From IMG/VR virus record IMGVR_UViG_2713896832_000003: 20,937 nucleotides of DNA; one strand, written 5' to 3'. A program made the translations under genes and the position numbers. The stretch comes from a virus (taxonomy: Duplodnaviria > Heunggongvirae > Uroviricota > Caudoviricetes). The notes below the pieces were generated by a model that was given only the letters and a program-made list of their open reading frames with translations, was not told the DNA's origin and searched no databases. Shown in pieces: positions 2,430 through 19,197 of the stretch (positions are counted from its first letter, which is position 1; each line of letters begins with the position of its first letter).

Positions 2430-4901
2430 TTAAGAATCAGCCTGACTCGGGATCAGTTTTTGCCAGATAACTGAAACGTATTTTGCCTGGTAACGGGCGT
2501 CATCAAGTGCATTATGGCGCTCACCTTCGAATTGAATAGCCGTTCTGGCATCGAAGTCTATGACTTTCCCCAGCTCAACGATTGTGCGTACATCGCGATC
2601 GTTGTAGTAACGCCACGGGCAGGGGATCCCCTGCCGTTCGTATGAACGGCGCAAAATCGTGTTGTCGAAGTTGGCTCCATTCCCCCAAACCTGAACAAAA
2701 AATTCACCGGAGTTTTCGTCGATAAATTCCCGCAATTGTAACAGTGCATCATCTAACGGGATTTCATCGGTCATAATGGCAGATTGCGCTTCGCGTGATT
2801 GCTTAAGCCACCATTTAATGGTGTCCCGATCAATGACTCCGCCAGCAGTTTCCAGATCGATAGTCTTACTAAATTCCGGTCCCATATCTCCGGTTTGCGG
2901 ATCGAAAAATATTGCACCTATTGAGGTGATCGGGGCATCAGGATTTTTTCCCATGGTTTCAAGGTCGATCATTAGATGGTCACACGTCCTGCTGGTGGAT
3001 GTGATTTCGTGATGACCGTTCACCTTAATTGGGTGATCTGCCGTCTCGCCAGTTTCATTATCGCTATTGTGATGCTGATTGCCGCCAGTGTTCTCCTTGT
3101 GTGGATGTTCAGCGCCTTCCATTTCCTCCGGATCATCTTCCTGAACTTCAACCTGATACTCTTCATCGAATGTTTCTTGGTATGTTGCGTCGCCCATCAC
3201 CGCGCCACAATCAGGGCAGTTGCCGCCGCCGGTCTGACCGCAGGCGGTGCAGACTTTTTCCACTTCCTGTTGCGCTACTGGTTCAGGCTGTTTCGTTTCT
3301 GGCTCGTTTTGTAACGCATTTGGACTGTTTTGTTCCGCTTTTTGGTAGTTCCGTTCCGATTCATGCTGGTTCTGGTTCACAGAATCGCGGGTCTGGATCC
3401 CCTTAACCCATTTCGGATCATTCGGGTCACTAATCCCTTCAACAAATTCACCACGTGATGCAGCAAGCAACTTATCAGCGTCAGGCTGGCTGATATTGGC
3501 TGCCTGCATAATTTTGTTTACTTCGTCAGCGGTAACTTTTATCGGCTCTGGTTGTTCTGAATCTTCAGCGGTATCTACATTTTGCGGTAAGCCCGTGTAT
3601 GTGCCATTTTTTCGGGCAAAATATTCTTCTTTTGTGATTTCAGTGGCGCCAGCAGCCAGTGCCTTATCCAGACCAGAAAGTTTGTTTGCGCGACCGTATT
3701 TTTCTCCGTCCTTATCTGCGAAGAGGAAATAGAACGGCCCCTCACGCTCTACAGATGGTTCAGCTTCCGGCGCGGTTTCATTTTTTGGGATATCAGATAC
3801 CTCAGTTTCCACTGCATCAGTTTGTGTTTCTGATGACTGGAGAACATCAACAGTGCCCAGGTCTGTTTCTTCATTCTCAAACACGCCCTTTGTCGTCAGG
3901 TATTCGCAGATATATTTGTTCAGTGCTACGGGATCTTTGTGAATGTCGATCGGACGCTCACGGACAAGGCCAAAAATAGTTTGGCGGTCGTAGCGAAGGG
4001 CATCAGGCTGTTTGCGCATTGATGCCGAGATACGCTTCCAGTCTTCGCGGTCGTTGTCGATAACTTCTTTTTTTGCCCAGCGATGGATGCTGCCGTCAAT
4101 GTTTCCGGCATCCACATCACCAGGCCAGAGAGCGTAGGCCAGTTCGTCATCCAGTGTTTTCCATGTCTGCTTGTATTCGCGATGAATGGCAGCAATGACC
4201 GGGCTGATTTTTCCTGTTGAATTTTCAGTGTACTGTTGATTGGCTCTGGCGCGTGCGAGATCAACAACAGACGTGTATTTTCCGGTTTCCTTGCGTTCAC
4301 CTTCGCGACGTTTTTTCCAGATGCGCATCTCTGCCTGAATTTCGGGCCATTTAGCACCAGGAATACATTTATGCTTAACCCACCCAATGGCGTGCAACTT
4401 AAGCTCCGGATACATGGCGTTAACTTCTGGCATTTTCATCAACGCTTCAACGATATGTCCGTCGAATGTTGCCATGTCTTCCTGCAACAATTCCTGTGCG
4501 CTAATAACCATATCAACGGTGATGTTTTCACATGTGTCGAACTTAACCATGACAGCGTTCTGTACTTCAGGGGCCAGCTTGTCAAAAGTGACGTTCATCG
4601 GATCGGATTCAGTCTCAACCGGGACAAAAGAAGCAGACTCCTCATCCCAGCGGTTTTCCTGCATATATTCAGCATCCCATGAATCGAGGGCAGGGCGGGG
4701 TATGCCAGGTTTATCCTCGCAGACAATAAATTTATAAGCGCAGTCCTGAGCAGCCGGATAATGTTCCAGGAATTGCCAGTGAAATTTTGCTCGAGCACGG
4801 CGTTCGTCGCCAGCTTCAATGGCTGTGGCTACAGCCACAGCGCCTTCTTCCCTTGTTGCCAGTTCGTCAGGAATAGCGGCGCAAATAAAGACTTTACTCA
4901 T
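2430..4901 (-). CDS. exodeoxyribonuclease VIII-like protein: RecE-like central region with a DnaQ/DEDDh-type 3'-5' exonuclease C-terminal domain
   Basis: 823-aa ORF. The central acidic/Q-rich segment with zinc-ribbon CTACGQTGGGNCPDCG resembles the RecE middle region as I recall it. The C-terminal ~180 aa carry DEDDh-like motifs (MIDLETMG...; ...WGNGANFD...; ...HNALDDARYQAKY). Confidence 0.8.
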   Translation of the reverse strand: MSKVFICAAIPDELATREEGAVAVATAIEAGDERRARAKFHWQFLEHYPAAQDCAYKFIVCEDKPGIPRPALDSWDAEYMQENRWDEESASFVPVETESDPMNVTFDKLAPEVQNAVMVKFDTCENITVDMVISAQELLQEDMATFDGHIVEALMKMPEVNAMYPELKLHAIGWVKHKCIPGAKWPEIQAEMRIWKKRREGERKETGKYTSVVDLARARANQQYTENSTGKISPVIAAIHREYKQTWKTLDDELAYALWPGDVDAGNIDGSIHRWAKKEVIDNDREDWKRISASMRKQPDALRYDRQTIFGLVRERPIDIHKDPVALNKYICEYLTTKGVFENEETDLGTVDVLQSSETQTDAVETEVSDIPKNETAPEAEPSVEREGPFYFLFADKDGEKYGRANKLSGLDKALAAGATEITKEEYFARKNGTYTGLPQNVDTAEDSEQPEPIKVTADEVNKIMQAANISQPDADKLLAASRGEFVEGISDPNDPKWVKGIQTRDSVNQNQHESERNYQKAEQNSPNALQNEPETKQPEPVAQQEVEKVCTACGQTGGGNCPDCGAVMGDATYQETFDEEYQVEVQEDDPEEMEGAEHPHKENTGGNQHHNSDNETGETADHPIKVNGHHEITSTSRTCDHLMIDLETMGKNPDAPITSIGAIFFDPQTGDMGPEFSKTIDLETAGGVIDRDTIKWWLKQSREAQSAIMTDEIPLDDALLQLREFIDENSGEFFVQVWGNGANFDNTILRRSYERQGIPCPWRYYNDRDVRTIVELGKVIDFDARTAIQFEGERHNALDDARYQAKYVSVIWQKLIPSQADS

Positions 4902-4994: not shown

Positions 4995-5186
4995 TTAAAG
5001 ACCTGCCGGGATTTCGATATTATCCTGGTTAATAACTTTATCGACCGGGTAACAGTTACCGGGAATTTTCTGTTCGGTTGCTGCAGTCATACACTCCTGC
5101 ATTGTCCTGTGAACACTGACTGCAATATCAACTGGCACTCCGGAAACAAGAAAAACTGTCAGAACAAGCGCAAATGCTGAATTCAT
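4995..5186 (-). CDS. ydfD: YdfD-like small protein (63 aa, N-terminal hydrophobic segment)
   Basis: The ORF track gives 81 aa, but the internal Met (MNSAFALVLTVFLVSG...) start at 5186 forms an ATGA overlap with the dicB stop, implying translational coupling. Size and position match ydfD downstream of dicB in Qin (recalled). Confidence 0.5.
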   Translation of the reverse strand: MNSAFALVLTVFLVSGVPVDIAVSVHRTMQECMTAATEQKIPGNCYPVDKVINQDNIEIPAGL

Positions 5187-5371
5187 TGTGCACATCCTTT
5201 TGGCATCAGACGTAAACGAGCCAGCATTGAAACAATGCATATTTTATTTAATAGCTCCCGTTCTTGTTTTCTCTTGTTAATGGCATCTTCAGTAAATACA
5301 GGGTTACTGATAGTGACACCAATTTCAAAACAACCTTCAGACGTATTAACGTTTGGTAATAACGTTTTCAT
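5183..5371 (-). CDS. dicB: DicB cell-division inhibitor
   Basis: 62-aa ORF MKTLLPNVNTSEGCFEIGVTISNPVFTEDAINKRKQERELLNKICIVSMLARLRLMPKGCAQ, matching my recollection of Qin DicB in length and sequence. Confidence 0.75.
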   Translation of the reverse strand: MKTLLPNVNTSEGCFEIGVTISNPVFTEDAINKRKQERELLNKICIVSMLARLRLMPKGCAQ

Positions 5372-5419
5372 TATCGCGTCCTCAACAATGAATTTTGTGA
5401 TGCAGTGCCTGGTGCCTCC

Positions 5420-5460
5420 AGGTGACGTTAACCAGTTAACAATTAACGTCGGATATCCGG
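5420..5460. promoter_or_regulatory. palindrome-rich divergent control region between the leftward dicB operon and the rightward replication operon
   Basis: 8-bp inverted repeat GACGTTAA (5423-5430) / TTAACGTC (5443-5450) and the 10-bp palindrome CGGATATCCG (5450-5459), in the ~250-bp gap between divergent operons. Confidence 0.3.
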
Positions 5461-5475
5461 ATTAGTGATTTCAGG

Positions 5476-5697
5476 TTGTATCGTGAGATCAGTGATGGAA
5501 AAAGTATTACGTACATGATCGCCGGGTTAAATAAAGAATATGGCGATGTGGTGGAATCCGGACTGCTTTTTGCAGATCCTGCCGTTGTAGATCGTGAAAC
5601 TGACGAACTTATAGAAAAAGCAATTGCTTTCAAGCTTGCGTATCGACAGCAATACCAACAAAAAGCTGGATGGAATTATGAGTCTTCTTTTTGCTGA
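5476..5697 (+). CDS. hypothetical small protein (TTG start as listed; internal ATG at 5515 possible); uncertain
   Basis: 73-aa ORF with protein-like composition, whereas the overlapping minus-strand ORF 5436..5633 is Ser/Thr-rich and low-complexity. No motif recognised; overlaps the start of the replication gene. Confidence 0.25.
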   Translation: MYREISDGKSITYMIAGLNKEYGDVVESGLLFADPAVVDRETDELIEKAIAFKLAYRQQYQQKAGWNYESSFC

Positions 5698-6643
5698 ACG
5701 CCCACTGGTTATAAACACGCAGCTGGCAATGAAAATTGGCTTAAACGAAGCCATTGTTTTGCAACAACTGCACTACTGGTTGAGAGATACCAACTCCGGC
5801 ATGGAATGTGATGGTGTTCGCTGGATTTATAACACAACGGAACAATGGCTGGAACAGTTCCCATTCTGGTCAGAGTCAACGTTAAAGCGCGCGTTTGCAA
5901 GTCTGAAAACGCTGGGGCTTTTGCGTTGTGAAAAGCTCAATAAATCAAAGCGCGATATGACCAATTTCTACACGATCAACTACGGGAGCGAGCTTTTAGA
6001 TGGTGGCAAATTGAGCGAATCCATCGGTTTAAAATGCGCCGCTCCATCAGGTCAAAATGACACGATGGAAGAGGTCAAAATGAAACGCTCCATTGGTTCA
6101 AAACGACTCAATGTCATCGGGTCAAAATGGCCTGATGATCTTACAGAGAATACAACAGAGATTACTACAGAGAATAAAAAGACTTCTCGTCCGGAAGCTT
6201 CGCAACCGGACCCGCAGACGGTTGAACAGGATTTTTTAACCCGACACCCTGACGCGGTTGTGTTCAGTGCGAAAAAACGCCAGTGGGGCAGCCAGGAAGA
6301 TTTGGCGTGTGCGCAGTGGATCTGGGGGCGAATCGTGAGTCTTTACGAGCAGGCCGCCAGCGATGATGGCGAGATTTCGCGACCGAAAGAACCCAACTGG
6401 ACCGCATGGGCCAACGACGTGCGCACAATGCGGATGCTGGATGGCAGAACTCACAGACAAATTTGTGAAATGTTTGGTCGGGTGCAGCGGGATCCATTCT
6501 GGGTAAAAAATATCATGAGTCCGTCAAAGCTTCGCGAAAAATGGGATGAACTGGTTATCCGCCTGGGGCGTTCGTCTGTACAGCGTTGTGTGAATCATAT
6601 TTCTGAGCCGGATACCGAAATTCCGCCGGGCTTCAGGGGGTAA
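5624..6643 (+). CDS. phage replication initiator (lambda O-like replisome organizer)
   Basis: N-terminal winged-helix-like region (MSLLFAERPLVINTQLAMKIGLNEAIVLQQLHYWL...) typical of phage initiators, and the iteron array lies inside the gene as in lambda O. Likely true start is ATG 5678 (MSLLFAERPLV). Confidence 0.75.
   Translation: MLSSLRIDSNTNKKLDGIMSLLFAERPLVINTQLAMKIGLNEAIVLQQLHYWLRDTNSGMECDGVRWIYNTTEQWLEQFPFWSESTLKRAFASLKTLGLLRCEKLNKSKRDMTNFYTINYGSELLDGGKLSESIGLKCAAPSGQNDTMEEVKMKRSIGSKRLNVIGSKWPDDLTENTTEITTENKKTSRPEASQPDPQTVEQDFLTRHPDAVVFSAKKRQWGSQEDLACAQWIWGRIVSLYEQAASDDGEISRPKEPNWTAWANDVRTMRMLDGRTHRQICEMFGRVQRDPFWVKNIMSPSKLREKWDELVIRLGRSSVQRCVNHISEPDTEIPPGFRG
6020..6129. repeat. origin-like iteron array: five 17-bp direct repeats (consensus TCCATCrGGTCAAAATG) at exact 23-bp spacing
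   Basis: Copies start at 6020, 6043, 6066, 6089 and 6112. A 23-bp period is not a multiple of 3, so the repeat is a DNA-level signal rather than an amino-acid repeat. Followed at 6140-6180 by A/T-rich ACAGAGA(A/T)TA direct repeats. Confidence 0.65.
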
Positions 6644-6683
6644 GTGTTAATTTCTGGTCATGAGGTAATTTTCAGGAGGGCTT

Positions 6684-7106
6684 GTGGCAAAAGTTTTTAC
6701 ACAAGAAGAGCGGGAAAAAATTAAAGGGCAGGTTGTTGAACTCGTACGCCGGAGTGGGCGTGAGACGTTACGGCAACTGGAAGTCAAGACAGGTGCGACA
6801 AGATATCTGATGAGCGTTCTCGCAAGAGAGCTGGTTGCCAGCGGCGATGTATACAACTCTGGTTACGGGTTATTCCCGTCTGAACAGGCGCGTAAGGACT
6901 GGCAAAATGCCCGTAAAAAGCTCTCAAGGGCAAAGCTGAAGGAACCATCTGCGGTTGATCCGGACCTTATCTGGTCATTACCTGACGGAGAAATACGTCG
7001 TTACGACAGGCGTCATAATATGATTTGTACTGAGTGTCGTAAAAGCGAAGTTATGCAGCGCATATTGTCGTTTTATCAGGGGGATGTCCGGTATTTATTG
7101 AAGTGA
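6684..7106 (+). CDS. hypothetical phage protein, 140 aa
   Basis: GTG start 6 nt after an AGGAGG RBS (6672-6677), 40 nt downstream of the replication gene; basic, protein-like composition. Confidence 0.6.
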   Translation: MAKVFTQEEREKIKGQVVELVRRSGRETLRQLEVKTGATRYLMSVLARELVASGDVYNSGYGLFPSEQARKDWQNARKKLSRAKLKEPSAVDPDLIWSLPDGEIRRYDRRHNMICTECRKSEVMQRILSFYQGDVRYLLK

Positions 7107-7174
7107 CGAGATTAAAGTGCATTAGTTCAGATGCAAATTGACATTTTGTGGCACAGGGTAGAGCTAGCGTGGTT

Positions 7175-7198
7175 GTCCGCTTTGTGCCAAGAGCGGAC
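7175..7198. repeat. palindromic repeat, copy A (GTCCGCTTTGTGCCAAGAGCGGAC)
   Basis: Imperfect hairpin with GTCCGC(T) / (A)GCGGAC arms, between the convergent 6684 gene and the GIY-YIG gene; two mismatches to copy B. Confidence 0.5.
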
Positions 7199-7235
7199 TT
7201 TGCAAAATGGGGGTTATTTCAATCAAAACGTAACG

Positions 7236-8180
7236 TCACAACCAGCCGACGCTCTCTCGCCATTTATAATTAGTAACTTTATCATTTTCGCTTATTTTTT
7301 TAGATATAGAGCGCGGCTCTCTTCCTAGATACTCAGATATTTCTATCGGGGACAAATCAAAATCAACAAGCATGACTCTAAGTTTTTCCATTTCCTTTAA
7401 AGTCCAAGGCTTGCCATAATTTTCATAAAGAGATACCTTATGCTCCCTGATAGTTCGCTTTCTCTGAGTTTCACTTTCCCTCTGAAAAATCTCGCTTTTA
7501 AATTGTGAACGGAACTCTTTACAGAAGTTGTTATCAGTTTTTTTGTTATATAGATTGCTAAAAATAAGCTGGGATGCCGGGTCTAAATCAGGTGTGTTAA
7601 TAATGAAAACTTTGACCTTTTCCATATAGGGATATTCAATTTTACCCAATATGCTTAATTGCTTTATATTAAAAAAACCTCTCAAATCAAAAGATTTAAT
7701 GAGCTTTGATTGGATTACACTTTCAATCCTGCTTGCATTTAAATAACAGTACTTTGCCATTGGAAGGGCCCATACTACCAGTTGAGGAATATATTTTTCT
7801 AATGCAATGCTCTGCCAATCAGTATCAAAGGTTTGGCTTTTTGCTAGCATGTTTTTCGGCAAATCAGAATACATTGTGGTAGATGCCCATATCTTATAAT
7901 CATTCGCCAAGGCTTGATAGTATTTTGTGTGGTTATGAATTTTATAAGCTGACATGAAGCGATAAACGTCTTCGTCGTGACCAGCGTCGTAAATTGTTCG
8001 ATTTCCTCTAAGATAACCGTCGTAATGTTCGGTTATCCTTCTACCTACATTACAACTTACCCCAACGTAAACCACACGACTGAAAAGTCCTTTATGGACA
8101 ATAAGATAAACTCCGCTACAGCCAGATTTCCTGGCCTCTGATAGAGAACCTAAAAATCTCCATTCCATAATTAAATCCAT
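7236..8180 (-). CDS. GIY-YIG nuclease-domain protein with a C-terminal putative HTH region
   Basis: N-terminal SGVYLIVHKGLFSRVVYVGVSCNVGRRITEH fits the GIY...YIG...R...E pattern of GIY-YIG nucleases. The C-terminal ~60 aa (PWTLKEMEKLRVMLVDFDLSPIEISEYLGREPRSISKKIS) are HTH-like. AT-rich coding sequence. Confidence 0.7.
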   Translation of the reverse strand: MDLIMEWRFLGSLSEARKSGCSGVYLIVHKGLFSRVVYVGVSCNVGRRITEHYDGYLRGNRTIYDAGHDEDVYRFMSAYKIHNHTKYYQALANDYKIWASTTMYSDLPKNMLAKSQTFDTDWQSIALEKYIPQLVVWALPMAKYCYLNASRIESVIQSKLIKSFDLRGFFNIKQLSILGKIEYPYMEKVKVFIINTPDLDPASQLIFSNLYNKKTDNNFCKEFRSQFKSEIFQRESETQRKRTIREHKVSLYENYGKPWTLKEMEKLRVMLVDFDLSPIEISEYLGREPRSISKKISENDKVTNYKWRESVGWL

Positions 8181-8348
8181 AATTATTGCTACTGTTTTTG
8201 TTTATCATTATTTTCGTGAAACTTCAACAATTTTATCCAAAAGCTAAGGGCAAAGACTTATATAATTATACTTGTCATCGTTAGCGATTATATAGAGTAG
8301 TGGCGCTGACCTGCTCCCTGGTGATTCACACAGAATGCTGTTAGTAAT

Positions 8349-8372
8349 GTCCGTTCCTCGCTCTCAGCGGAC
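8349..8372. repeat. palindromic repeat, copy D (GTCCGTTCCTCGCTCTCAGCGGAC)
   Basis: Same arm sequences as copies A, B and C; about 170 nt upstream of the GIY-YIG gene start. Confidence 0.45.
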
Positions 8373-8390
8373 CTTCAGCTCAGTGATATC

Positions 8391-8414
8391 GTCCGCTCTG
8401 TGCAAAGAGCGGAC
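8391..8414. repeat. palindromic repeat, copy B (GTCCGCTCTGTGCAAAGAGCGGAC)
   Basis: 8-bp arms GTCCGCTC/GAGCGGAC around an 8-nt spacer; starts 42 nt after the start of copy D. Confidence 0.5.
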
Positions 8415-8727
8415 GTTGGTATGCAAGAGCCCTCCAAAAGTTGATGGTTGGTTTGCAGGGGGGCTTAAAGAAACTGCACTTATCAAGTTGAAGTTCTGTA
8501 TTCAGCGAAATCGTAGCACTCTGACGATAAGTAACTCCGGTACTCCGCTCTTCGATGAAGAACCAGAGTAATCCCCCCGAAAAACCAGCGCATCAAAATT
8601 GGATCTTCAGCGGTAGCTTATCGGCTATCGGAAGTACAGGTGTGGATTCGTGGTGAATTGCTTTGATAATAAACGATTAATACGGAAAAACGCATTAATC
8701 ATTTATTAGCTTTTAGTAAACCACAAT

Positions 8728-10077
8728 TTATTCCGTTTTACATATCATAGTAGTCGATTGGAGAATATAGTTTCTGGGAATGTACTCTTCAAAGTGTTCG
8801 TCCTTTTTAAATACATGAACTACATTTGGGAATAATTGATAGTCAACAGGGTGTATAGCGTTTGGATTATGGTACATGTACATGGCTGTACACCATGGTT
8901 CTTGATAGTTAGGGTCACTTACATCGGCTGAAAATGGATGTGGGGCTGCATCCTGATCAGTTTTAACACCACTGACGTACACTTTGAATCCACTCGCCTC
9001 TACACCTGCAAGAATTCCCATCCGGTTAAACTTAGGTATGGTTGCTTGAGTAGTGAGTAAAACGGCAGAAACATAATTATTTTGTTCTGAGCCAAAAAAG
9101 TTCGACTTGATACTTCTATTTTCATCTGTATGTCTTTCAATAGAAATGCCTGACTCAATATCAATCCCGTACAAATAGCTATGCAAGGCTTCGCTTGAGA
9201 AGGCCATGGACATTCTTTTTGAATAATCCTGCATTGCTATGACAAATGGTTTGTTCTTTGTATGGTTGAGTTCCCAGTAATGAACTTTCTCTGGCTCAGG
9301 GCAATGCCGGACTTTTTTTAATAAACTTCTTGCAAACTTAAAAGGCATGACATTTAGAACATGTTTTCTTAATTCATCCATCTGTTCATCGTTAATGACT
9401 TTTCTTTCAAGAGGGGCTTCTGCTTCAGCAATGCTTACAGCCTCTACAGCAATTTCCACTCCAAATTTAGATAGCAGAAAATCTGGTTGATTGTATTCTC
9501 TATTCATTTCAAAGTCGAGTTCATAAAATACAGCGTTCAAATATAATTCAAATAACCTTGAATTAAATGCATCACTTTGAAAATCCCTTATAAATATTCC
9601 ATCAGGATCTTTGAACCAGTATGCAAGTTCCTCAAGAACAATATATGCAGGGAAATGAAGAGGGTCTTCGAGGAGCATTTTTATATAAACATTCCTTTTT
9701 TTCGCTGGGACCTTACTCAAGAATAATGAAAAAGGTTTGGTTGATTCATCGCCTTGCATGAATGTACCATTTTGGTGCTGCGCCAGCATCTTTGGTATGT
9801 CATCGTTCAAATTATTAAGCAAGACATCCATTGAATCAAATGAAGCCAAGACGTTTATTGCTCTGAATTTTTTATCTAAATCCCGACCTAAGACTATTGC
9901 GTTAAAATCTTTATCAATATTGCATATGATTATTGTGGATAACAATGTTATCCCATTCCCCTCATATTTAAACCAGCGTATCTCCTCAGAAAATGTCTTA
10001 AGGTAAGGTGAGCGACCGTAAAAATAAATATCAAATTGTTCTTTGCTGATCTCACTGAAGTGTAATCCTGCGTTCAT
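8728..10077 (-). CDS. hypothetical protein, 449 aa, no recognised domain
   Basis: Long AT-rich ORF with an AAAAGGAA RBS before the ATG, upstream of and co-oriented with the GIY-YIG gene. A hairpin-plus-T-rich terminator candidate lies on the minus strand around 8672-8700. Confidence 0.7.
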   Translation of the reverse strand: MNAGLHFSEISKEQFDIYFYGRSPYLKTFSEEIRWFKYEGNGITLLSTIIICNIDKDFNAIVLGRDLDKKFRAINVLASFDSMDVLLNNLNDDIPKMLAQHQNGTFMQGDESTKPFSLFLSKVPAKKRNVYIKMLLEDPLHFPAYIVLEELAYWFKDPDGIFIRDFQSDAFNSRLFELYLNAVFYELDFEMNREYNQPDFLLSKFGVEIAVEAVSIAEAEAPLERKVINDEQMDELRKHVLNVMPFKFARSLLKKVRHCPEPEKVHYWELNHTKNKPFVIAMQDYSKRMSMAFSSEALHSYLYGIDIESGISIERHTDENRSIKSNFFGSEQNNYVSAVLLTTQATIPKFNRMGILAGVEASGFKVYVSGVKTDQDAAPHPFSADVSDPNYQEPWCTAMYMYHNPNAIHPVDYQLFPNVVHVFKKDEHFEEYIPRNYILQSTTMICKTE

Positions 10078-10361
10078 ACCAATTCCTTTTCAATGAATAA
10101 TTGGCCTTTAGGAGTGATTCCCTTTGTCTTTAATTCAGTTCTAACTAGTTCTTTAATCCAATAGCCTAAGCTCATCATGCAGTTGGATCATAAGACAACG
10201 CCCTATAGTGCTCGTGATACTATAGGGCATCTGACCACACTGTTAACTGGAGTAACGACTATGGCAGGAATACAGCATAACCAAACTCACCCCAAACTTA
10301 CATAGCGCTTTCTGGCCGTGAGCATAACAAGGTCCACTCCTCGCTCATAAGGGACAACCAT

Positions 10362-10394
10362 ACTCAAATCTCCCACATTGCAGGAGATTTGAGT
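10362..10394 (+). promoter_or_regulatory. 12-bp perfect inverted repeat whose right arm covers the RBS of the recombinase gene
   Basis: ACTCAAATCTCC (10362-10373), 9-nt loop, GGAGATTTGAGT (10383-10394), ending 1 nt before ATG 10395. Would sequester the Shine-Dalgarno sequence in the mRNA. Confidence 0.4.
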
Positions 10395-10997
10395 ATGAAC
10401 ACGTCACCGTGGAACAAAGACCGTATCATAGGCCAAAAAAGACCACTTCAGATATCTCATATCTGGGGTATCCGAATCCGACTTGAACTGGAAGGTAAAA
10501 CTCGCGATTTAGCTCTGTTCAACATGGCCCTGGATAGTAAGCTTCGAGGCTGTGATCTGGTCAAACTCAAAGTATCTGATGTTGCATATGGTGGCTCTGT
10601 TTCAAGCAGAGCAACGGTGTTGCAACAGAAAACCGGTAGCCCTGTTCAATTTGAGATAACCAAAGGGACAAGAGAAGCTGTTGCTGCATTGATACAGCTT
10701 AGCAATTTGCACAGTAAAGACTTCTTGTTTCGGTCTAGGGTCGGAACTAACCAGCACATTTCAACCCGGCAATACAACCGAATCTTTCATGGGGGGGTAG
10801 AAAAGCTTGGTCTCGAAGATTCGCTTTACAGCACACATTCCATGAGAAGAACAAAACCTTACCTGATCTACAAGAAAACCAAGAATCTCCGGGTGATCCA
10901 ACTTCTGTTGGGTCATAAGAAACTGGAAAGCACAGTCCGTTATCTGGGCATTGAAGTCGATGATGCGTTAGAGATTTCTGAATCGATTGAAGTCTAA
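10395..10997 (+). CDS. FimB/FimE-like short tyrosine recombinase (catalytic domain only, ~200 aa)
   Basis: Contains the tyrosine-recombinase catalytic residues in order (LRGCDL; QQKTGSPVQ; HSMRRT; LLLGHKKLESTVRYL) but no N-terminal core-binding domain, the FimB/FimE architecture. The ORF track starts at TTG 10389; ATG 10395 with an AGGAG RBS is more likely. Confidence 0.8.
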   Translation: MNTSPWNKDRIIGQKRPLQISHIWGIRIRLELEGKTRDLALFNMALDSKLRGCDLVKLKVSDVAYGGSVSSRATVLQQKTGSPVQFEITKGTREAVAALIQLSNLHSKDFLFRSRVGTNQHISTRQYNRIFHGGVEKLGLEDSLYSTHSMRRTKPYLIYKKTKNLRVIQLLLGHKKLESTVRYLGIEVDDALEISESIEV

Positions 10998-11003
10998 GGT
11001 TGT

Positions 11004-11025
11004 CAGGGCTGCAACAGCAGCCCTG
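11004..11025. terminator. hairpin just after the recombinase stop (CAGGGCTGC-AACA-GCAGCCCTG)
   Basis: 9-bp perfect stem 7 nt after the TAA; no clear U-tract, so terminator function is uncertain. Confidence 0.35.
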
Positions 11026-11356
11026 TGCCATAAGCGGAAGTATTTAACAACTATCAGTGTTGTTCAACAGATAAAGGGGCACTTGATTTTTTCTGTTCTC
11101 AGGAAATGATAAAAGCGCGTCGGTTCAAGCCTGCTTAACGGGAGTTTGTTAATCCTGTTGCCGTGACGTTTTGACACCATTATGATGGGGAGACACTTAA
11201 TGTATGAAGGTTCCGCCACTTATACCTGTCCAACAACTGCCTCGGATGTTTCTTTGTATGAATAAGTGGTAATGAGTAGTGAATCGCTAACAGTCACCCG
11301 AACAATCGGTGCCTGCAATTAATTCTATATTCTAAACGAGGGGGAGATTATTACAC

Positions 11357-12337
11357 ATGAAATTTAAGGACAAGAACCTTAAGGCTCTCGCGGAATGTAT
11401 CATAGGAGATAATAAGGCATTTCTGTATCGTTCAAGCAGTCACATCACTGAATTTTTCCAGGACTGCGGCATGGATGTTACTCATGACGGATCCACTCGG
11501 TGGAAATGGACGGCCCAGAGGCTTGAAGAACTTCTTTATGAGCCACAGTCAAAGCCACATACTTTGCCGGAAAGGTTTGTTCATGTGCTCAGAACTTTAA
11601 TGTTAAAAGAAGATGCAATGGATGACGATCCAGGAAGATTAAAGGCGCTTGAAGAACTGAACAAGCCTTTGATGCGGGAAGGCTATGAGGCATTCTATGG
11701 TGACGATCGCCTTTTGTATATACGCCATACCGATACCAAAACGGTTTCAGTCAGTAATAACCCTCATCGGCCCTTAACGCCTCACGAAGTAGAATGCAGA
11801 AGGTTACTGACCGCGTTTCTTGATACCTGCTCAGAAGATGAGTTAATAGAAGATATTCTCCTTCCTTTATTCCGGCAACTTGGTTTTCACCGGATAACAG
11901 CAGTGGGACATAAAGATAAAGCGCTGGAATACGGGAAAGACATCTGGATGAAGTTCACACTGCCAACTCAGCATGTTCTTTATTTCGGCATTCAGGCAAA
12001 AAAAGGTAAGTTGGATGCGTCCGGTGCCAGCAAATCTACGAATTCAAACGTGGCAGAAATCTTCAACCAGGTACTGATGATGCTTGGCCATGAAATATTT
12101 GACCCAGAAACAAATAGAAAGGTGCTGGTAGATCATGCCTTTATCGTTGCTGGCGGAGAAATTACTAAACAGGCGAGGAACTGGCTGGGCGGGAAACTTG
12201 ATGCCAGCAAAAGAAGCCAGATAATATTTATGGACCGGGAAGACATTCTTAATTTATATACTGTAAGTAATGTACCTCTGCCAACAGGTGCTCTCATCTC
12301 TGATGATGCCGTTAAGAACGATGATATTCCTTTCTAA
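11357..12337 (+). CDS. hypothetical protein with an Mrr-like (PD-(D/E)xK, D...QxK) nuclease motif in the C-terminal half
   Basis: Strong RBS GAGGGGGAG before the ATG. Motif ...EYGKDIWMKF...HVLYFGIQAKKGKL resembles the Asp...Gln-x-Lys catalytic signature of Mrr-type restriction endonuclease domains; the N-terminal ~160 aa are unassigned. Confidence 0.65.
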   Translation: MKFKDKNLKALAECIIGDNKAFLYRSSSHITEFFQDCGMDVTHDGSTRWKWTAQRLEELLYEPQSKPHTLPERFVHVLRTLMLKEDAMDDDPGRLKALEELNKPLMREGYEAFYGDDRLLYIRHTDTKTVSVSNNPHRPLTPHEVECRRLLTAFLDTCSEDELIEDILLPLFRQLGFHRITAVGHKDKALEYGKDIWMKFTLPTQHVLYFGIQAKKGKLDASGASKSTNSNVAEIFNQVLMMLGHEIFDPETNRKVLVDHAFIVAGGEITKQARNWLGGKLDASKRSQIIFMDREDILNLYTVSNVPLPTGALISDDAVKNDDIPF

Positions 12338-12561
12338 TCAGAAGTACGTCTTTTTCTGAAAGAATACGTGATAGGTAGCCACACCACACCTTTAGTGACC
12401 CCTTAATCTGGTAATATAACAGCCCGTATGAATGTCCGCGGCATCGCGGGCTGAAATTTATTAAAAATACTTATTCATCAAGCTGGAGTAGTTTGCCGAG
12501 TAACTGTAAACGCCCAACTTAACCGGACCATTCACTTTTAGATTGCTACCAGCAAACCAAC

Positions 12562-12585
12562 TTCCGTTTCTCGCTCAAAGCGGAC
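12562..12585. repeat. palindromic repeat, copy C (TTCCGTTTCTCGCTCAAAGCGGAC)
   Basis: Closest to copy D; lies ~225 nt after the Mrr-like gene at the right edge of the AT-rich island. Confidence 0.45.
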
Positions 12586-12764
12586 TAGAAGGTTAGCTTG
12601 CGTCGGACTTGGCGTATTTAAAGAAGTGCTGGTGGTAACTGGTTGTTGTGTTCCATTTCTACAAAACAAAATCACAGAAACTATACCCAATAGTTATATT
12701 GAATCAATGATGAGACAGCCTCATATTTATCAGAACTGGTGTACGTCCAATACAGGAGGTTGTC

Positions 12765-12854
12765 GTGCTGGTTCTCAAATATGCGCTAGCTATTGCGGCT
12801 GTAATGGCAATTTATTGTCTTGCTATTGTTCTTACGGATCGCCTTTCTGATTGA
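12765..12854 (+). CDS. candidate small hydrophobic peptide, 29 aa (MLVLKYALAIAAVMAIYCLAIVLTDRLSD)
   Basis: GTG start 5 nt after a perfect AGGAGG (12754-12759); single predicted transmembrane-like helix. Not in the ORF track because of size; overlaps the listed 12626..12850 Cys-rich ORF in another frame. Confidence 0.3.
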   Translation: MLVLKYALAIAAVMAIYCLAIVLTDRLSD

Positions 12855-13065
12855 TTTTATATTGGCGAGGTGACGGGAGTTAAGTAGAATTGCTGCGGGT
12901 GCTTGAGGCTATCTGCCTCAGGCATGAACACCAAAGGCAGATAGAGAAAAGCCCCAGTTAACATTACGCGTCCTGCAAGACGTTTAACATTAATCTGAGG
13001 CTCAATCTATGAACGGCAAATCTAGGTTAGCCTCTTACGTGCCGAAAGGCAAGGAGAAGCAGGCT

Positions 13066-13221
13066 ATGAAGCAGCAAAAGGCGATGTTAATCGCCCTGAT
13101 CGTCATCTGTTTAACCGTCATAATGACGGCACTGGTAACGAGGAAAGACCTCTGCGAGGTACGAATCCGAACCGGCCAGACGGAGGTCGCTGTCTTCACA
13201 GCTTACGAACCTGAGGAGTAA
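13066..13221 (+). CDS. hokD: Hok/Gef family membrane toxin HokD (RelF)
   Basis: 51-aa product MKQQKAMLIALIVICLTVIMTALVTRKDLCEVRIRTGQTEVAVFTAYEPEE matches recalled HokD; AAGGAG RBS at 13051-13056. The listed ORF 13009..13221 is an in-frame 19-codon upstream extension. Confidence 0.85.
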   Translation: MKQQKAMLIALIVICLTVIMTALVTRKDLCEVRIRTGQTEVAVFTAYEPEE

Positions 13222-13290
13222 GAGACCAGGCGGGGGAGAATCCCTCGCCACCTCTGATGTGTCAGGCATCCTCAACGCACCCGCACTTAA

Positions 13291-13320
13291 CCCGCTTCGG
13301 CGGGTTTTTGTTTTTATTTT
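13291..13320 (+). terminator. rho-independent terminator after hokD
   Basis: CCCGC-TTCG-GCGGG stem-loop followed by TTTTTGTTTTT. Confidence 0.6.
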
Positions 13321-13436
13321 CAACGCGTTTGAAGTTCTGGACGGTGCCGGAATAGAATCAAAAATACTTAAGTAGCGCGCAGGGATAAGAGGGATGGTCC
13401 CTTAAAGGGGAGAGCTAATTATCCGGAAGGATTCTG

Positions 13437-13688
13437 ATGATGAACATCGAAGAACTGCGTAAAATTTTTTGTGAAGATGGCCTCTATGCTGTGTGCGTTG
13501 AAAATGGAAATCTTGTTAGTCATTACCGCATTATGTGTTTGCGAAAGAATGGGGCTGCGTTAATTAATTTTGTGGATGGTCGAGTGACAGACGGATTTAT
13601 CTTGCGCGAAGGTGAGTTTGTCACTTCATTACAGGCACTGAAAGAGATTGGAATAAAAGCAGGCTTTTCAGCTTTTGCAGAAGAATAA
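13437..13688 (+). CDS. rem: Rem-like small protein, 83 aa
   Basis: GGAAGG RBS; 83-aa ORF directly downstream of hokD, matching the size and position of rem in Qin (recalled gene order hokD-rem-ydfU-quuQ). Sequence identity is not independently verified. Confidence 0.5.
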   Translation: MMNIEELRKIFCEDGLYAVCVENGNLVSHYRIMCLRKNGAALINFVDGRVTDGFILREGEFVTSLQALKEIGIKAGFSAFAEE

Positions 13689-15096: not shown

Positions 15097-15471
15097 ATGC
15101 TCATAGATTTGGTTTTACCTTACCCGCCGACGGTGAACACTTACTGGCGACGCCGTGGCAGCACATATTTTATCTCGGAGGAGGGAAAGCGTTATCGCCG
15201 GGCTGTGGCGCTTATTGTTCGCCAGCAGCGGCTGAAATTAAGCCTGTCCGGAAGGCTGGCGATAAAGGTGATTGCAGAGCCACCGGATAAGCGTCGTCGC
15301 GACCTGGACAATATCCTGAAAGCACCGCTGGATGCGCTGACGCATGCGGGAGTGTTAATGGACGATGAGCAGTTTGATGAAATCAATATCGTTCGTGGTC
15401 AGCCAGTATCTGGTGGACGTCTGGGGGTGAAGATTTACCCCATAATGCATGAAGAGCAGGTCAAAAAATGA
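15097..15471 (+). CDS. rusA: RusA Holliday junction resolvase
   Basis: 124 aa with LPYPPTVNTYW ... RRDLDNILKAPLDALTHAGVLMDDEQF, the characteristic RusA motifs; AAGAGG RBS. Confidence 0.9.
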   Translation: MLIDLVLPYPPTVNTYWRRRGSTYFISEEGKRYRRAVALIVRQQRLKLSLSGRLAIKVIAEPPDKRRRDLDNILKAPLDALTHAGVLMDDEQFDEINIVRGQPVSGGRLGVKIYPIMHEEQVKK

Positions 15472-17034: not shown

Positions 17035-19197
17035 ATGAAATCCATGGACAAAATTTCAACGGGCATTGCCTATGGCACCTCCGCAGGCAGTGCTGGCTAC
17101 TGGTTTTTACAGCTGCTCGATAAAGTCACGCCCTCACAGTGGGCAGCAATAGGTGTGCTGGGTATCCGCACCGGCGGGCGCGTGCTGGCGGTAAACAGCC
17201 AGACCCGGACGCTGACGCTCGACCGTGAAATCACGCTGCCATCTTCCGGCACCACGCTGATAAGCCTGGTTGACGGGCAGGGGAGTCCGGTCAGCGTGGA
17301 GGTTCAGTCCGTCACCGACGGCGTGAAGGTGAAAGTGAGCCGTGTTCCTGACGGCGTTGCTGAATACAGCGTATGGGGGCTGAAGCTGCCGACGCTGCGC
17401 CAGCGCCTGTTCCGCTGCGTGAGTATCCGTGAGAACGACGACGGCACGTATGCCATCACCGCCGTGCAGCATGTACCGGAAAAAGAGGCCATCGTGGATA
17501 ACGGGGCGCACTTTGACGGCGACCAGAGCGGCACGGTAAATGGTGTCACGCCGCCAGCGGTGCAGCACCTGACCGCAGAAGTCACCGCAGACAGCGGGGA
17601 ATACCAGGTGCTGGCCCGCTGGGACACGCCGAAGGTGGTGAAGGGCGTGAGCTTCCTGCTTCGCCTGACCGTGGCAGCGGATGACGGCCGTGAGCGGCTG
17701 GTCAGCACGGCCCGGACGACGGAAACCACTTACCGCTTCACACAACTGGCTCTGGGGAACTACAGGCTGACAGTCCGGGCAGTAAATGCGCGGGGGCAGC
17801 AGGGCGATCCGGCGTCGGTATCGTTCCGGATTGCCGCACCGGCAGCGCCGTCGCGGATTGAGCTGACGCCGGGCTATTTTCAGATAACCGCCACGCCGCA
17901 TCTTGCGGTTTATGACCCGACGGTACAGTTTGAGTTCTGGTTCTCGGAAAAACGGATTGCGGATATCAGGCAGGTTGAAACCAGCGCGCGTTATCTTGGT
18001 ACGGCACTGTACTGGATAGCCGCCAGTATCAATATCAAACCGGGCCATGATTATTATTTTTACGTTCGCAGTGTGAACACCGTTGGCAAATCGGCATTCG
18101 TGGAGGCTGTCGGTCAGCCGAGTGATGATGCATCAGGCTATCTGGATTTTTTCAAAGGCGAGATAGGGAAAACCCATCTGGCTCAGGAGCTGTGGACGCA
18201 GATTGATAACGGTCAGCTTGCGCCTGACCTGACTGAAATCAGGACGTCCATAACGGATGTCAGCAATGAAATAACACAGACCGTCAATAAGAAACTGGAA
18301 GACCAGAGTGCAGCGATCCAGCAGATACAGAAGGTTCAGGTTGATACAAATAATAACCTGAACAGCATGTGGGCAGTGAAGCTGCAGCAGATGCAGGACG
18401 GACGCCTTTATATTGCGGGTATCGGTGCCGGTATTGAGAACACCCCTGACGGCATGCAGAGTCAGGTGCTGCTGGCAGCAGACAGGATTGCGATGATTAA
18501 TCCTGCGAATGGCAACACAAAGCCGATGTTTGTTGGTCAGGGCGATCAGATATTCATGAATGAAGTGTTCCTGAAACGCCTGACGGCCCCCACCATTACC
18601 AGCGGCGGTAATCCTCCGGCATTTTCCCTGACATCAGACGGGAGACTGACGGCGAAAAATGCGGATATCAGTGGCAGTGTGAATGCGAACTCAGGAACGC
18701 TCAACAATGTCACGATTAACCAGAACTGTACGATTAAGGGCATGCTGGAGGCGACCCAGGTCAGAGGAGATTTCGTTAAAGCTGTATCAAAAGCCTTCCC
18801 GAAAAAAGTCGGTACGTGGGGTAACACGGAAACACCAAACGGTACGGTTACAGTAACCATCAGCGATGATCATAACTTTGACCGCCAGATTATTATTCCG
18901 CCCATTATTTTTAACGGTATAGCGTATGACGATCCGGGGAGCGGAAATAACCCAGGAGGCACGCGATACACGGGTTATGGTTTTGAAGTTCGCAAAAACG
19001 GCGTATTAATCGCATCCAGAGAAACTAAAGGGGCCATTCCCGGTAGTTACAGTGCAGTTATTGATATGCCGAGTGGCAGGGGAAGCGTCACTCTGGAGTT
19101 TAAGATTTTCCAGAAAGGCAATCAGGGGGCAGGCAATATCACCGACTGTACGGTGATTGTGACCAAAAAAGCGGCTTCCGGCATCAGTATTCGTTGA
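17035..19197 (+). CDS. host-specificity (tail tip) protein J, C-terminal ~720 codons only
   Basis: Extensive match to the recalled distal part of lambda J (...[36 protein letters not shown]...; ...[26 protein letters not shown]...). ATG 17035 has a GGAGGTGA RBS; the upstream in-frame sequence is not J-like and runs through a terminator hairpin. Full-length J is ~1130 aa. Confidence 0.85.

Follow-up and report, generated by a model that had tools for sequence, protein, structure and literature searches.

What function is served by the short palindromes that stand between the genes of an island in a defective Qin-like lambdoid prophage of E. coli? The island occupies 7.1-12.6 kb of the virus record IMGVR_UViG_2713896832_000003 from IMG/VR, a stretch of 20,937 nucleotides that was analysed as a whole and is called the window here, and its AT content is higher than that of the flanking DNA. 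An earlier reading made from the letters alone (the sequence-only reading) had noticed four palindromes with GTCCGC/GCGGAC arms and had offered three candidate roles, namely operators for an island-encoded regulator, recombination sites for an adjacent FimB-like recombinase, or remnants of cassette boundaries. From the comparisons reported below it appears likely that the palindromes act as double-stranded core sites for site-specific recombination and so define mobile gene cassettes. These cassettes are probably exchanged between unrelated prophages and islands by a tiny tyrosine recombinase encoded within the array.

Palindromic sites of the island

The palindromes are real and non-random. 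A search for GTCCGYT-N10-AGCGGAC allowing up to 2 mismatches gave 9 strand-hits against 0.17 expected (100 shuffles, 0 of which reached 9). The four copies first described, sites A, D, B and C, are all present where they had been placed (Table 1); the true count is six, sites E and F being added. The arms were borne out as well, while the centre, at first put at 8-10 nt, is better described as a conserved asymmetric 6-bp core between inverted 9-bp arms (GTCCGCTnT / nnAGCGGAC). Such a 9-6-9 arrangement is the layout of tyrosine-recombinase core sites.

The sites can be grouped into two types according to their centres. Type t1, with the centre GTGCCA, includes A, B, and F, all on the + strand, and type t2, with the centre GAGCGA, includes D, E, and C, all on the - strand. 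The two are mutually inverted and their centres differ at 2 of 6 positions. Together the six sites divide the island into three cassettes, each of the form t1(+)...t2(-). Sites D and B are indeed adjacent, as the sequence-only reading had it; the pair is no simple tandem, though, but a composite junction, t2(-)-18 nt-t1(+), that recurs in other loci. The centre remains intact where the arms have decayed, as seen at sites E, F, and C and at the t2 site of phage P2.

Cassette structure and cargo in related viral loci

A scan of IMG/VR for GTCCGCTNTGNGCNANNANCGGAC returned at least 120 loci, and the arrangement of sites was taken from a looser scan of the 120 listed, the first element of each locus having been found by a pattern that fixes 18 bases. 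The counts in this section refer to these listed matches. Pairs of the form t1(+)...t2(-), 0.5-4.2 kb apart, account for 64 of the 96 neighbouring site pairs, and composite junctions like D/B occur 15 times with a start-to-start distance of 40-42 nt. Sequences 5' of the sites fall into few conserved groups, and those 3' of GCGGAC plus RTT are different in almost every locus. Information content is zero from +4 nt on the cargo side, i.e. conservation ends within 3 nt of the site.

The loci hold 59 distinct cassettes of 1-4 genes each, with cargo in either orientation (38 +, 21 -). Known defence proteins are numerous among their products, with a UG17 reverse transcriptase, DRT/Abi-P2, DarT/DarG, PD-T7-1, PDC-S06/S33/S35, and ThsA-like proteins as examples, and ordinary accessory genes are also found among the cargo. 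No transposase or recombinase recurs in the cargo of the 59 cassettes. The regular pairing of sites and the sharp drop of conservation on the cargo side strongly support the cassette-boundary role that had been suggested; the word 'remnants' is the part that does not stand, since the boundaries look functional. The operator role was not supported, as the sites flank unrelated cargo in unrelated elements and no shared regulator is seen.

Just inside t2, 5-8 of 81 otherwise unrelated cassettes carry a conserved leader, RTTGCTAACAGCGTTCTGTGTGAATCA...GGAGCAGGTCA, about 45 nt in length (window 8295-8348, - strand; also loci L011, L051, L071, L002, and L022). Possible roles for it are those of a promoter, of a ribosome-binding leader or of an accessory site.

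Position of the switch between backbone and cargo

Identical cargo in unrelated surroundings shows where backbone gives way to cassette. One cargo of 984 bp shows 99.9% identity over its full length between a P2 context (L066) and five lambdoid contexts, and at both of its flanking sites the inner arms go with the cargo, the outer arms with the backbone. Cassette 1 of the window was found in 289 E. coli genomes and compared in three contexts, a lambdoid prophage and two islands. Identity is confined to the block bounded by the t1 centre (TGTGCCAAGAGCGGAC...) and the t2 centre (...GTCCGTTCCTCGCTC), and all DNA beyond this centre-to-centre block differs among the three.

Within the sites, position 8 is invariant for each backbone (C in 21/21 P2 cases, T in 17/17 lambdoid cases) and positions 16-17 vary with the cargo. 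All informative junctions, representing about 8 events, fall between position 8/9 and position 16. The invariant position 8, the cargo-linked positions 16-17 and the shared inner arms thus place the switch in the central 6-7 bp, and the sites are best written 9-6-9.

Genomic distribution and hotspots

Two unrelated backbones dominate among the viral matches listed, P2 G|FI with 30 loci and lambdoid DUF977|hokD with 28. The former position, from the tail-fibre assembly gene G to the tail-sheath gene FI, is the classic Z/fun hotspot. In P2 (AF063097), GTCCACTCTGTGCCAAAAGCGGAC at 15335 (t1) and TTCCGCTTCTCGCTCAAAGGAAAC at 17432 (decayed t2) bracket fun(Z), and neither is annotated; in 15-33.6 kb of P2, including the tin/old region, no copies were found beyond these two. 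Arrays are also present in CP4-like islands, adjoining GTPase and Ag43 genes. In the Qin prophage of K-12 MG1655 (L264), a t1-like site at 1645981 and a t2-like site at 1646972 bracket flxA. This t1-like site falls inside the annotated ydfV frame, and the flxA cassette is reversed relative to the backbone compared with the window.

Sites are low-copy in E. coli, being found in at least 2241 of 5426 genomes at a median of 1 and a maximum of 5 places per genome, all intergenic, which speaks against a common genome-wide repeat without positional association in this species. The D-B composite junction was matched at 80% coverage or more in 447 E. coli genomes. A query made of fused left and right flanks detected no empty site in the 5426 genomes, and the smallest insert found was a 272-bp remnant cassette in strain A20.

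In E. coli MS20654 (L123), the same lambdoid hotspot carries at 3291-4090 a gene for QueH (epoxyqueuosine reductase). It is accompanied by a partial t1 only, without t2, and its boundary on the right is found further inside the backbone; it looks like an insertion or replacement that did not proceed via the sites.

Outside the enterobacteria, the same palindrome, as a 24-mer made up of GTCCGCTTTGTGCCAATAGCGGAC plus AT, is repeated at high copy number between the genes of Pseudolabrys, Xanthobacteraceae, Bradyrhizobium, and other Alphaproteobacteria (examples drawn from loci L126-L245). Up to 16 copies are seen in 8 kb (L160; other examples are L133, L142, and L203), and these are often direct tandem copies set apart by a conserved spacer of 21 nt. 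Centres in this group are TGTGCCA, TGGGCCA, TGGGTCA, and TGCGCCA; the t2 centre was seen in Enterobacterales only.

The 200-aa tyrosine recombinase

The junction between sites E and F is occupied by a gene for a 200-aa tyrosine recombinase comprised of the catalytic domain only (PF00589, E = 2e-17). Across 15 sequences, one of them a homologue of 57% identity, residues R51, K79, H148-x-x-R151, H174, and Y183 do not vary. The protein scores below the cut-offs of the invertase models PRK09871 (27.4 bits vs 222) and PRK09870 (19.2 bits vs 221) and of the NCBIfam integron integrase models (17.5 and 17.2 bits vs 435 and 265), and far below those of XerC and XerD; a sequence search of the PDB gave no hit. 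Homologues across Gammaproteobacteria are 77-95% identical, and of the 5426 E. coli genomes 902 carry the gene, which is found at many loci.

Homology between integrase units of different genomes starts inside site E (matches begin at window 10333-10341). ATCC 25922 has a composite junction in an island array that carries a 95.5%-identical recombinase. Five further E. coli contexts were sampled, and in 4/5 of them t1/t2-type sites surround the gene; one of these four is a P2 Z/fun hotspot and one has a lone degenerate t2. Overall, in 12 of 13 contexts the gene is flanked by a t2-like site upstream and a variant t1 site downstream; these contexts come from Escherichia, Proteus, Cycloclasticus, and Idiomarina, and their proteins diverge by up to 20%. 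The variant t1 site lies 18-28 nt past the stop codon, and in E. coli and Proteus the t2-like site precedes the start codon by about 40 nt. After the stop codon, the window, Proteus, Cycloclasticus, and Idiomarina share the succession of a short hairpin, GTGCCA-nnAGCGGAC, and then variable DNA; the hairpin is present in 12/13 integrase contexts with differing loops. The recombinase gene, standing between a t2-like and a t1 site, therefore fills the interval that elsewhere is the 18-nt spacer. In the Idiomarina unit, the integrase is followed by the variant t1 site, 6.9 kb of cargo, and a perfect t2. The 57%-identical homologue, in Rhizobium subbaraonis (L233; reverse strand, 5058-5657), has a t1-like site at about 5680 (…TCGCGCCAAAACCCGAC GTAG) with a local centre variant, and a second t1-like site, identical in its right half, follows 1.65 kb on at 7333.

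It is plausible, judging from these positions, that the palindromes serve as recombination sites for the small recombinase. The corresponding proposal of the sequence-only reading gains from the junction position of the gene in 12/13 contexts; the protein, however, scores below the FimB/E invertase cut-off, and the gene is missing from most arrays. The inverted repeat at the integrase start codon accompanies the gene as a conserved element in E. coli and in diverged form in Proteus, and may serve translation control or as a binding site.

Proposed mechanism and alternative explanations

In the proposed mechanism, a cassette would be the DNA from t1(+) to t2(-), and neighbouring cassettes would be joined by the t2-18 nt-t1 junction. 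Given the differences at 2/6 central positions, t1 and t2 should be versions that do not recombine with each other. Recombination of t1 with t1 and of t2 with t2 on two molecules would result in a cassette swap; recombination between equal sites within one array would yield an excised circle with one junction, which could enter another array. The most likely enzyme would be the 200-aa recombinase encoded between E and F, which would act in cis and, within cells that have it, also on arrays without the gene (in trans). Two heterospecific sites per cassette would favour swapping, and the absence of an empty site from the 5426 E. coli genomes fits swapping rather than insertion and loss. We infer from the comparative data that exchange would be enzymatic, with this recombinase as the enzyme and a circle as the intermediate.

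Several points weigh against this mechanism. No recombination event, circle or inversion has been observed, and the evidence is comparative throughout. Short-homology recombination would likewise place junctions inside the sites. Site conservation is partly a matter of ascertainment, because the pattern for the first element fixes 18 bases. The recombinase has no N-terminal core-binding domain, and none of its sequence relatives has a solved structure. It was found in 1 of the 120 viral loci listed and in 902 of the 5426 E. coli genomes, against at least 2241 with sites; being missing from most arrays, it must be assumed to act in trans, or another enzyme must be assumed. One context (L250) is without canonical t1/t2 within 7 kb, the variant site after the integrase stop codon being present.

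Short-homology recombination is also the serious rival. The sites would then be conserved linkers, exchange would proceed by homologous or short-homology recombination (Red/RecET-type or RecA), and the integrase would be a passenger. We consider this unlikely. Recombination is treated as the driver in a 2026 Nucleic Acids Research (NAR) analysis of P2/P4, which names no sites. The absence of the integrase from most arrays would suit a passenger; its location in the junction interval and not in the cargo interval, in 12/13 contexts, would not. Likewise, never-empty hotspots also fit double crossovers, whereas two site types, strict orientation, an asymmetric centre and palindromic arms are unneeded for homology-driven exchange. 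A large exonuclease is encoded by the window prophage, and backbones of this kind may therefore contain a recombination module; all of the approximately 8 informative junctions nevertheless lie between position 8/9 and 16, not spread over the arms. In addition, a stretch of about 24 bp with variable positions in it does not exceed the minimum that homology usually requires.

It is highly improbable that the palindromes are regulatory RNA or DNA hairpins (insulators, terminators or mRNA-stabilising stem-loops) for which recombination is incidental. Copies of t1 do fold stably (site A, -8.3 kcal/mol; D-B pair, z = -3.9), site B forms a stable hairpin as single-stranded DNA, and the sites lie between transcription units; the t2 hairpins, however, are weak (-1.5 to -5 kcal/mol, z near 0). 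Likewise, some backbone flanks contain TGGCACAGRG, which pairs with the t1 loop and hints at alternative pairing, whereas the arms are conserved as sequence without covariation, pair 8-17 is often broken, and the loop is the best-kept part even of decayed copies. Retention of the centre despite arm decay, together with the weak t2 hairpins, indicates that the conserved thing is the sequence, not the structure. The sequence-only reading had remarked on the lack of convincing U-tracts, and this agrees with a terminator scan of 7000-12900, whose 8 terminator-like hits include no copy of the six. Rfam gave no match at the sites at E <= 1 (6500-13500 and three alphaproteobacterial loci), and transcription around the sites is of two unrelated kinds, that of the P2 late region and that of the lambdoid early-right region.

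Least probable of all is that the sites are repetitive extragenic palindrome (REP)-like elements spread by a hairpin-specific HUH transposase of the REP-associated tyrosine transposase (RAYT) type or by another unseen enzyme, which the tandem high-copy repeat of Pseudolabrys, Xanthobacteraceae, and Bradyrhizobium would suit; high copy number is confined to some Alphaproteobacteria, however, no transposase recurs in the cargo, enterobacterial sites follow a two-type cassette-flanking arrangement rather than scattering, and the linked gene, also at the Rhizobium locus, is a tyrosine recombinase and not a Y1 transposase. The terminator, operator, and REP/RAYT readings all fit poorly.

Features of the array and its prophage setting

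The order in the window is backbone, A, cassette 1, D/B, cassette 2, E, integrase, F, cassette 3, C, backbone (Table 1). The protein of cassette 1 is named 'GIY-YIG nuclease family protein' in RefSeq for some genomes. The 449-aa protein of cassette 2 is the PD-T7-1 anti-phage defence protein (PADLOC, E = 7e-157), and the 326-aa protein of cassette 3 had no family match in Pfam, PADLOC or curated models. Site F combines an outer arm particular to the integrase unit with a canonical centre and a canonical inner arm, and variable cargo follows directly. The backbone flank of site A recurs before differing cargo in many loci, and that of site C (TAGAAGGTTAGCTTGC...) is common to 28 loci with different cargo among the matches listed.

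Table 1. Coordinates of sites, cassettes and associated features of the array in the window
Feature	Position	Strand	Description
Site A, t1	7175..7198	+	GTCCGCTTT-GTGCCA-AGAGCGGAC; left end of array, backbone junction on DUF977 side
Cassette 1	7199..8348	-	Single gene, 7236-8180 (-), 314 aa
Site D, t2	8349..8372	-	- strand: GTCCGCTGA-GAGCGA-GGAACGGAC
D-B junction spacer, 18 nt	8373..8390	.	CTTCAGCTCAGTGATATC; conserved core yTTCAGCTCAG
Site B, t1	8391..8414	+	GTCCGCTCT-GTGCAA-AGAGCGGAC; one centre change
Cassette 2	8415..10331	-	Gene 8728-10077 (-), 449 aa; also a remnant of an AlpA-family gene (RefSeq)
Site E, degenerate t2	10332..10355	-	GAGCGA centre intact, 3 arm mismatches; about 40 nt upstream of integrase start codon
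Inverted repeat, 15 bp, perfect	10359..10397	+	CATACTCAAATCTCC N9 GGAGATTTGAGTATG; overlaps integrase start codon
Small tyrosine recombinase, 200 aa	10395..10997	+	PF00589; occupies E-F junction
Hairpin	11004..11025	+	CAGGGCTGC-AACA-GCAGCCCTG; directly after integrase stop codon; 3' arm is the outer arm of site F
Site F, variant t1	11016..11039	+	AGCAGCCCT-GTGCCA-TAAGCGGAA; left (outer) arm replaced
Cassette 3	11040..12561	+	Gene 11357-12337 (+), 326 aa
Site C, t2	12562..12585	-	- strand: GTCCGCTTT-GAGCGA-GAAACGGAA; right end of array, sok/hokD side

The prophage adjoins rspAB. To the left of the array its order is integrase, excisionase, 3'-5' exonuclease, ydfD, dicB, a replication gene, the DUF977 gene, and the island; to the right follow sok/hokD, rem, DUF968, rusA, an antiterminator, three tRNAs, and a holin-tail-tip fusion. 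The sok antitoxin RNA was matched at 12897-13071, upstream of hokD (Rfam, 111.7 bits), as the one strong Rfam hit in the window, and the right backbone flank of the array is thus a hok/sok module. Upstream of the first t1, the backbone flank contains TGGCACAGRG, complementary to the t1 loop CTYTGTGCCA (window ~7135-7174; P2 AF063097 15300-15334), and the differences between its lambdoid and P2 versions are G-T-compatible. This flank may be a decayed inverted copy of t1 or an alternative pairing partner. Two other readings were rejected, a sigma-54 promoter at TGGCAC-N-GC in the left flank, where the spacing is one off as judged by eye, and a boxA/nut element at CGCTCTT, where the positions concerned are variable.

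Elsewhere in the prophage, a 23-bp repeat occurs five times (iterons) at 6008-6137 within the gene for a 339-aa replication protein, comparable to the origin inside lambda O. A single frame at 17035-19197 joins a P21-type holin N-terminus to domains of the tail-tip protein J, for which RefSeq gives two pseudogenes. This fusion marks a large deletion in the late region of the prophage.

Significance

Much of the arsenal against phages, both the known part and the unknown, resides in hotspots of phages and prophages, and the same pair of sites marks the exact ends of cassettes in the P2 Z/fun hotspot, the lambdoid hotspot, and chromosomal islands. If the link between enzyme and sites is true, cassette ends would be predictable from sequence, which would permit mining for new defence genes between t1 and t2; the never-empty hotspots would be explained, and a compact natural two-site exchange tool would be available. 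The comparison also links the 2004 observation in P2 to current defence-island biology.

A wider reading is possible, and we hold it with rather less than even confidence. The array would represent a widespread integron-like, natural cassette-exchange system not recognised as such until now, with a 200-aa recombinase highly conserved between Escherichia and Idiomarina, two heterospecific 9-6-9 sites, and a two-site junction as the counterpart of attC. If so, it would move both defence genes and accessory genes between P2-like phages, lambdoid prophages, CP4-like islands, and elements like integrative and conjugative elements (ICEs), would have REP-like high-copy relatives in soil Alphaproteobacteria, and would supply the missing mechanism by which P2 exchanges defence genes with unrelated elements.

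Comparison with known systems

The promoter early stem-loops (PeSLs) of T4-type phages are terminator-plus-promoter units thought to act via homologous recombination. Like the sites of the window, they are short conserved stem-loops that bracket variable genes in phage hyperplastic regions; the present sites differ in having no terminator signature, a recombinase-type core, and a linked recombinase gene. The FimB/FimE invertase switch differs in that the recombinase here misses the curated invertase score. No cassette was seen in both orientations, as FimB/FimE-type inversion would give, in the material at hand, for which no systematic search was made.

The pdif modules of Acinetobacter plasmids have 11-6-11 dif-like sites, are served by the host XerCD, and are separated by a single site. 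They resemble the present cassettes in being bounded by sites of opposite orientation with a 6-bp centre in many unrelated replicons. Here, however, the arms are not dif-related by inspection, the sites are of two types and pair up in the junctions, and they are linked to a small dedicated recombinase. Engineered cassette exchange with heterospecific lox or FRT sites likewise uses the same arms with different, incompatible centres in inverted orientation, which favours swapping over excision, but the lox/FRT pairing is an engineering design and not a natural system.

Integrons share with the arrays the succession of cassettes separated by recombination sites, promoter-independent and with cargo rich in defence genes. 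In both, a tyrosine recombinase gene adjoins specialised sites (here E and F) unlike those between cassettes, and many arrays have no integrase, as in the clusters of attC sites lacking integrases (CALINs). In contrast, the recombinase here has 200 aa and scores about 17 bits against cut-offs of 265 and 435, and it lies inside a junction and moves with the cassettes. Cores of two kinds, of duplex type and 24 bp, take the place of folded attC sites of 57-141 bp. The R''/L''/L'/R' boxes of attC and the GTTRRRY core are missing, the RTT after the site being only loosely like GTT. Cassettes of 1-4 genes in either orientation also depart from the single-orientation platform-promoter arrangement. 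Literature searches on integron-like or cassette-exchange systems in phage defence, and for the motif strings of the sites, yielded nothing relevant.

The closest relation is with P2 itself. Inverted repeats flanking fun(Z) of P2-like coliphages were described by Nilsson, Karlsson, and Haggard-Ljungquist (2004, Mol Biol Evol 21:1, doi 10.1093/molbev/msg223), as cited in a 2022 review (PMC8987985). The recent papers on the hotspots do not mention the repeats. A 2026 NAR paper weighed transposons, homologous recombination, and illegitimate recombination, and left the mechanism of exchange with unrelated elements unresolved. The fun(Z) repeats belong to the same family as the sites of the window, P2 carrying a t1 and a degenerate t2 around fun(Z), and for cassettes of the fun(Z) type the same cargo is found here in phage and in non-P2 bacterial loci with junctions at the repeats. 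The repeat phenomenon at the P2 locus is already known, and the two-site architecture, the composite junction, and the link to a recombinase may be new.

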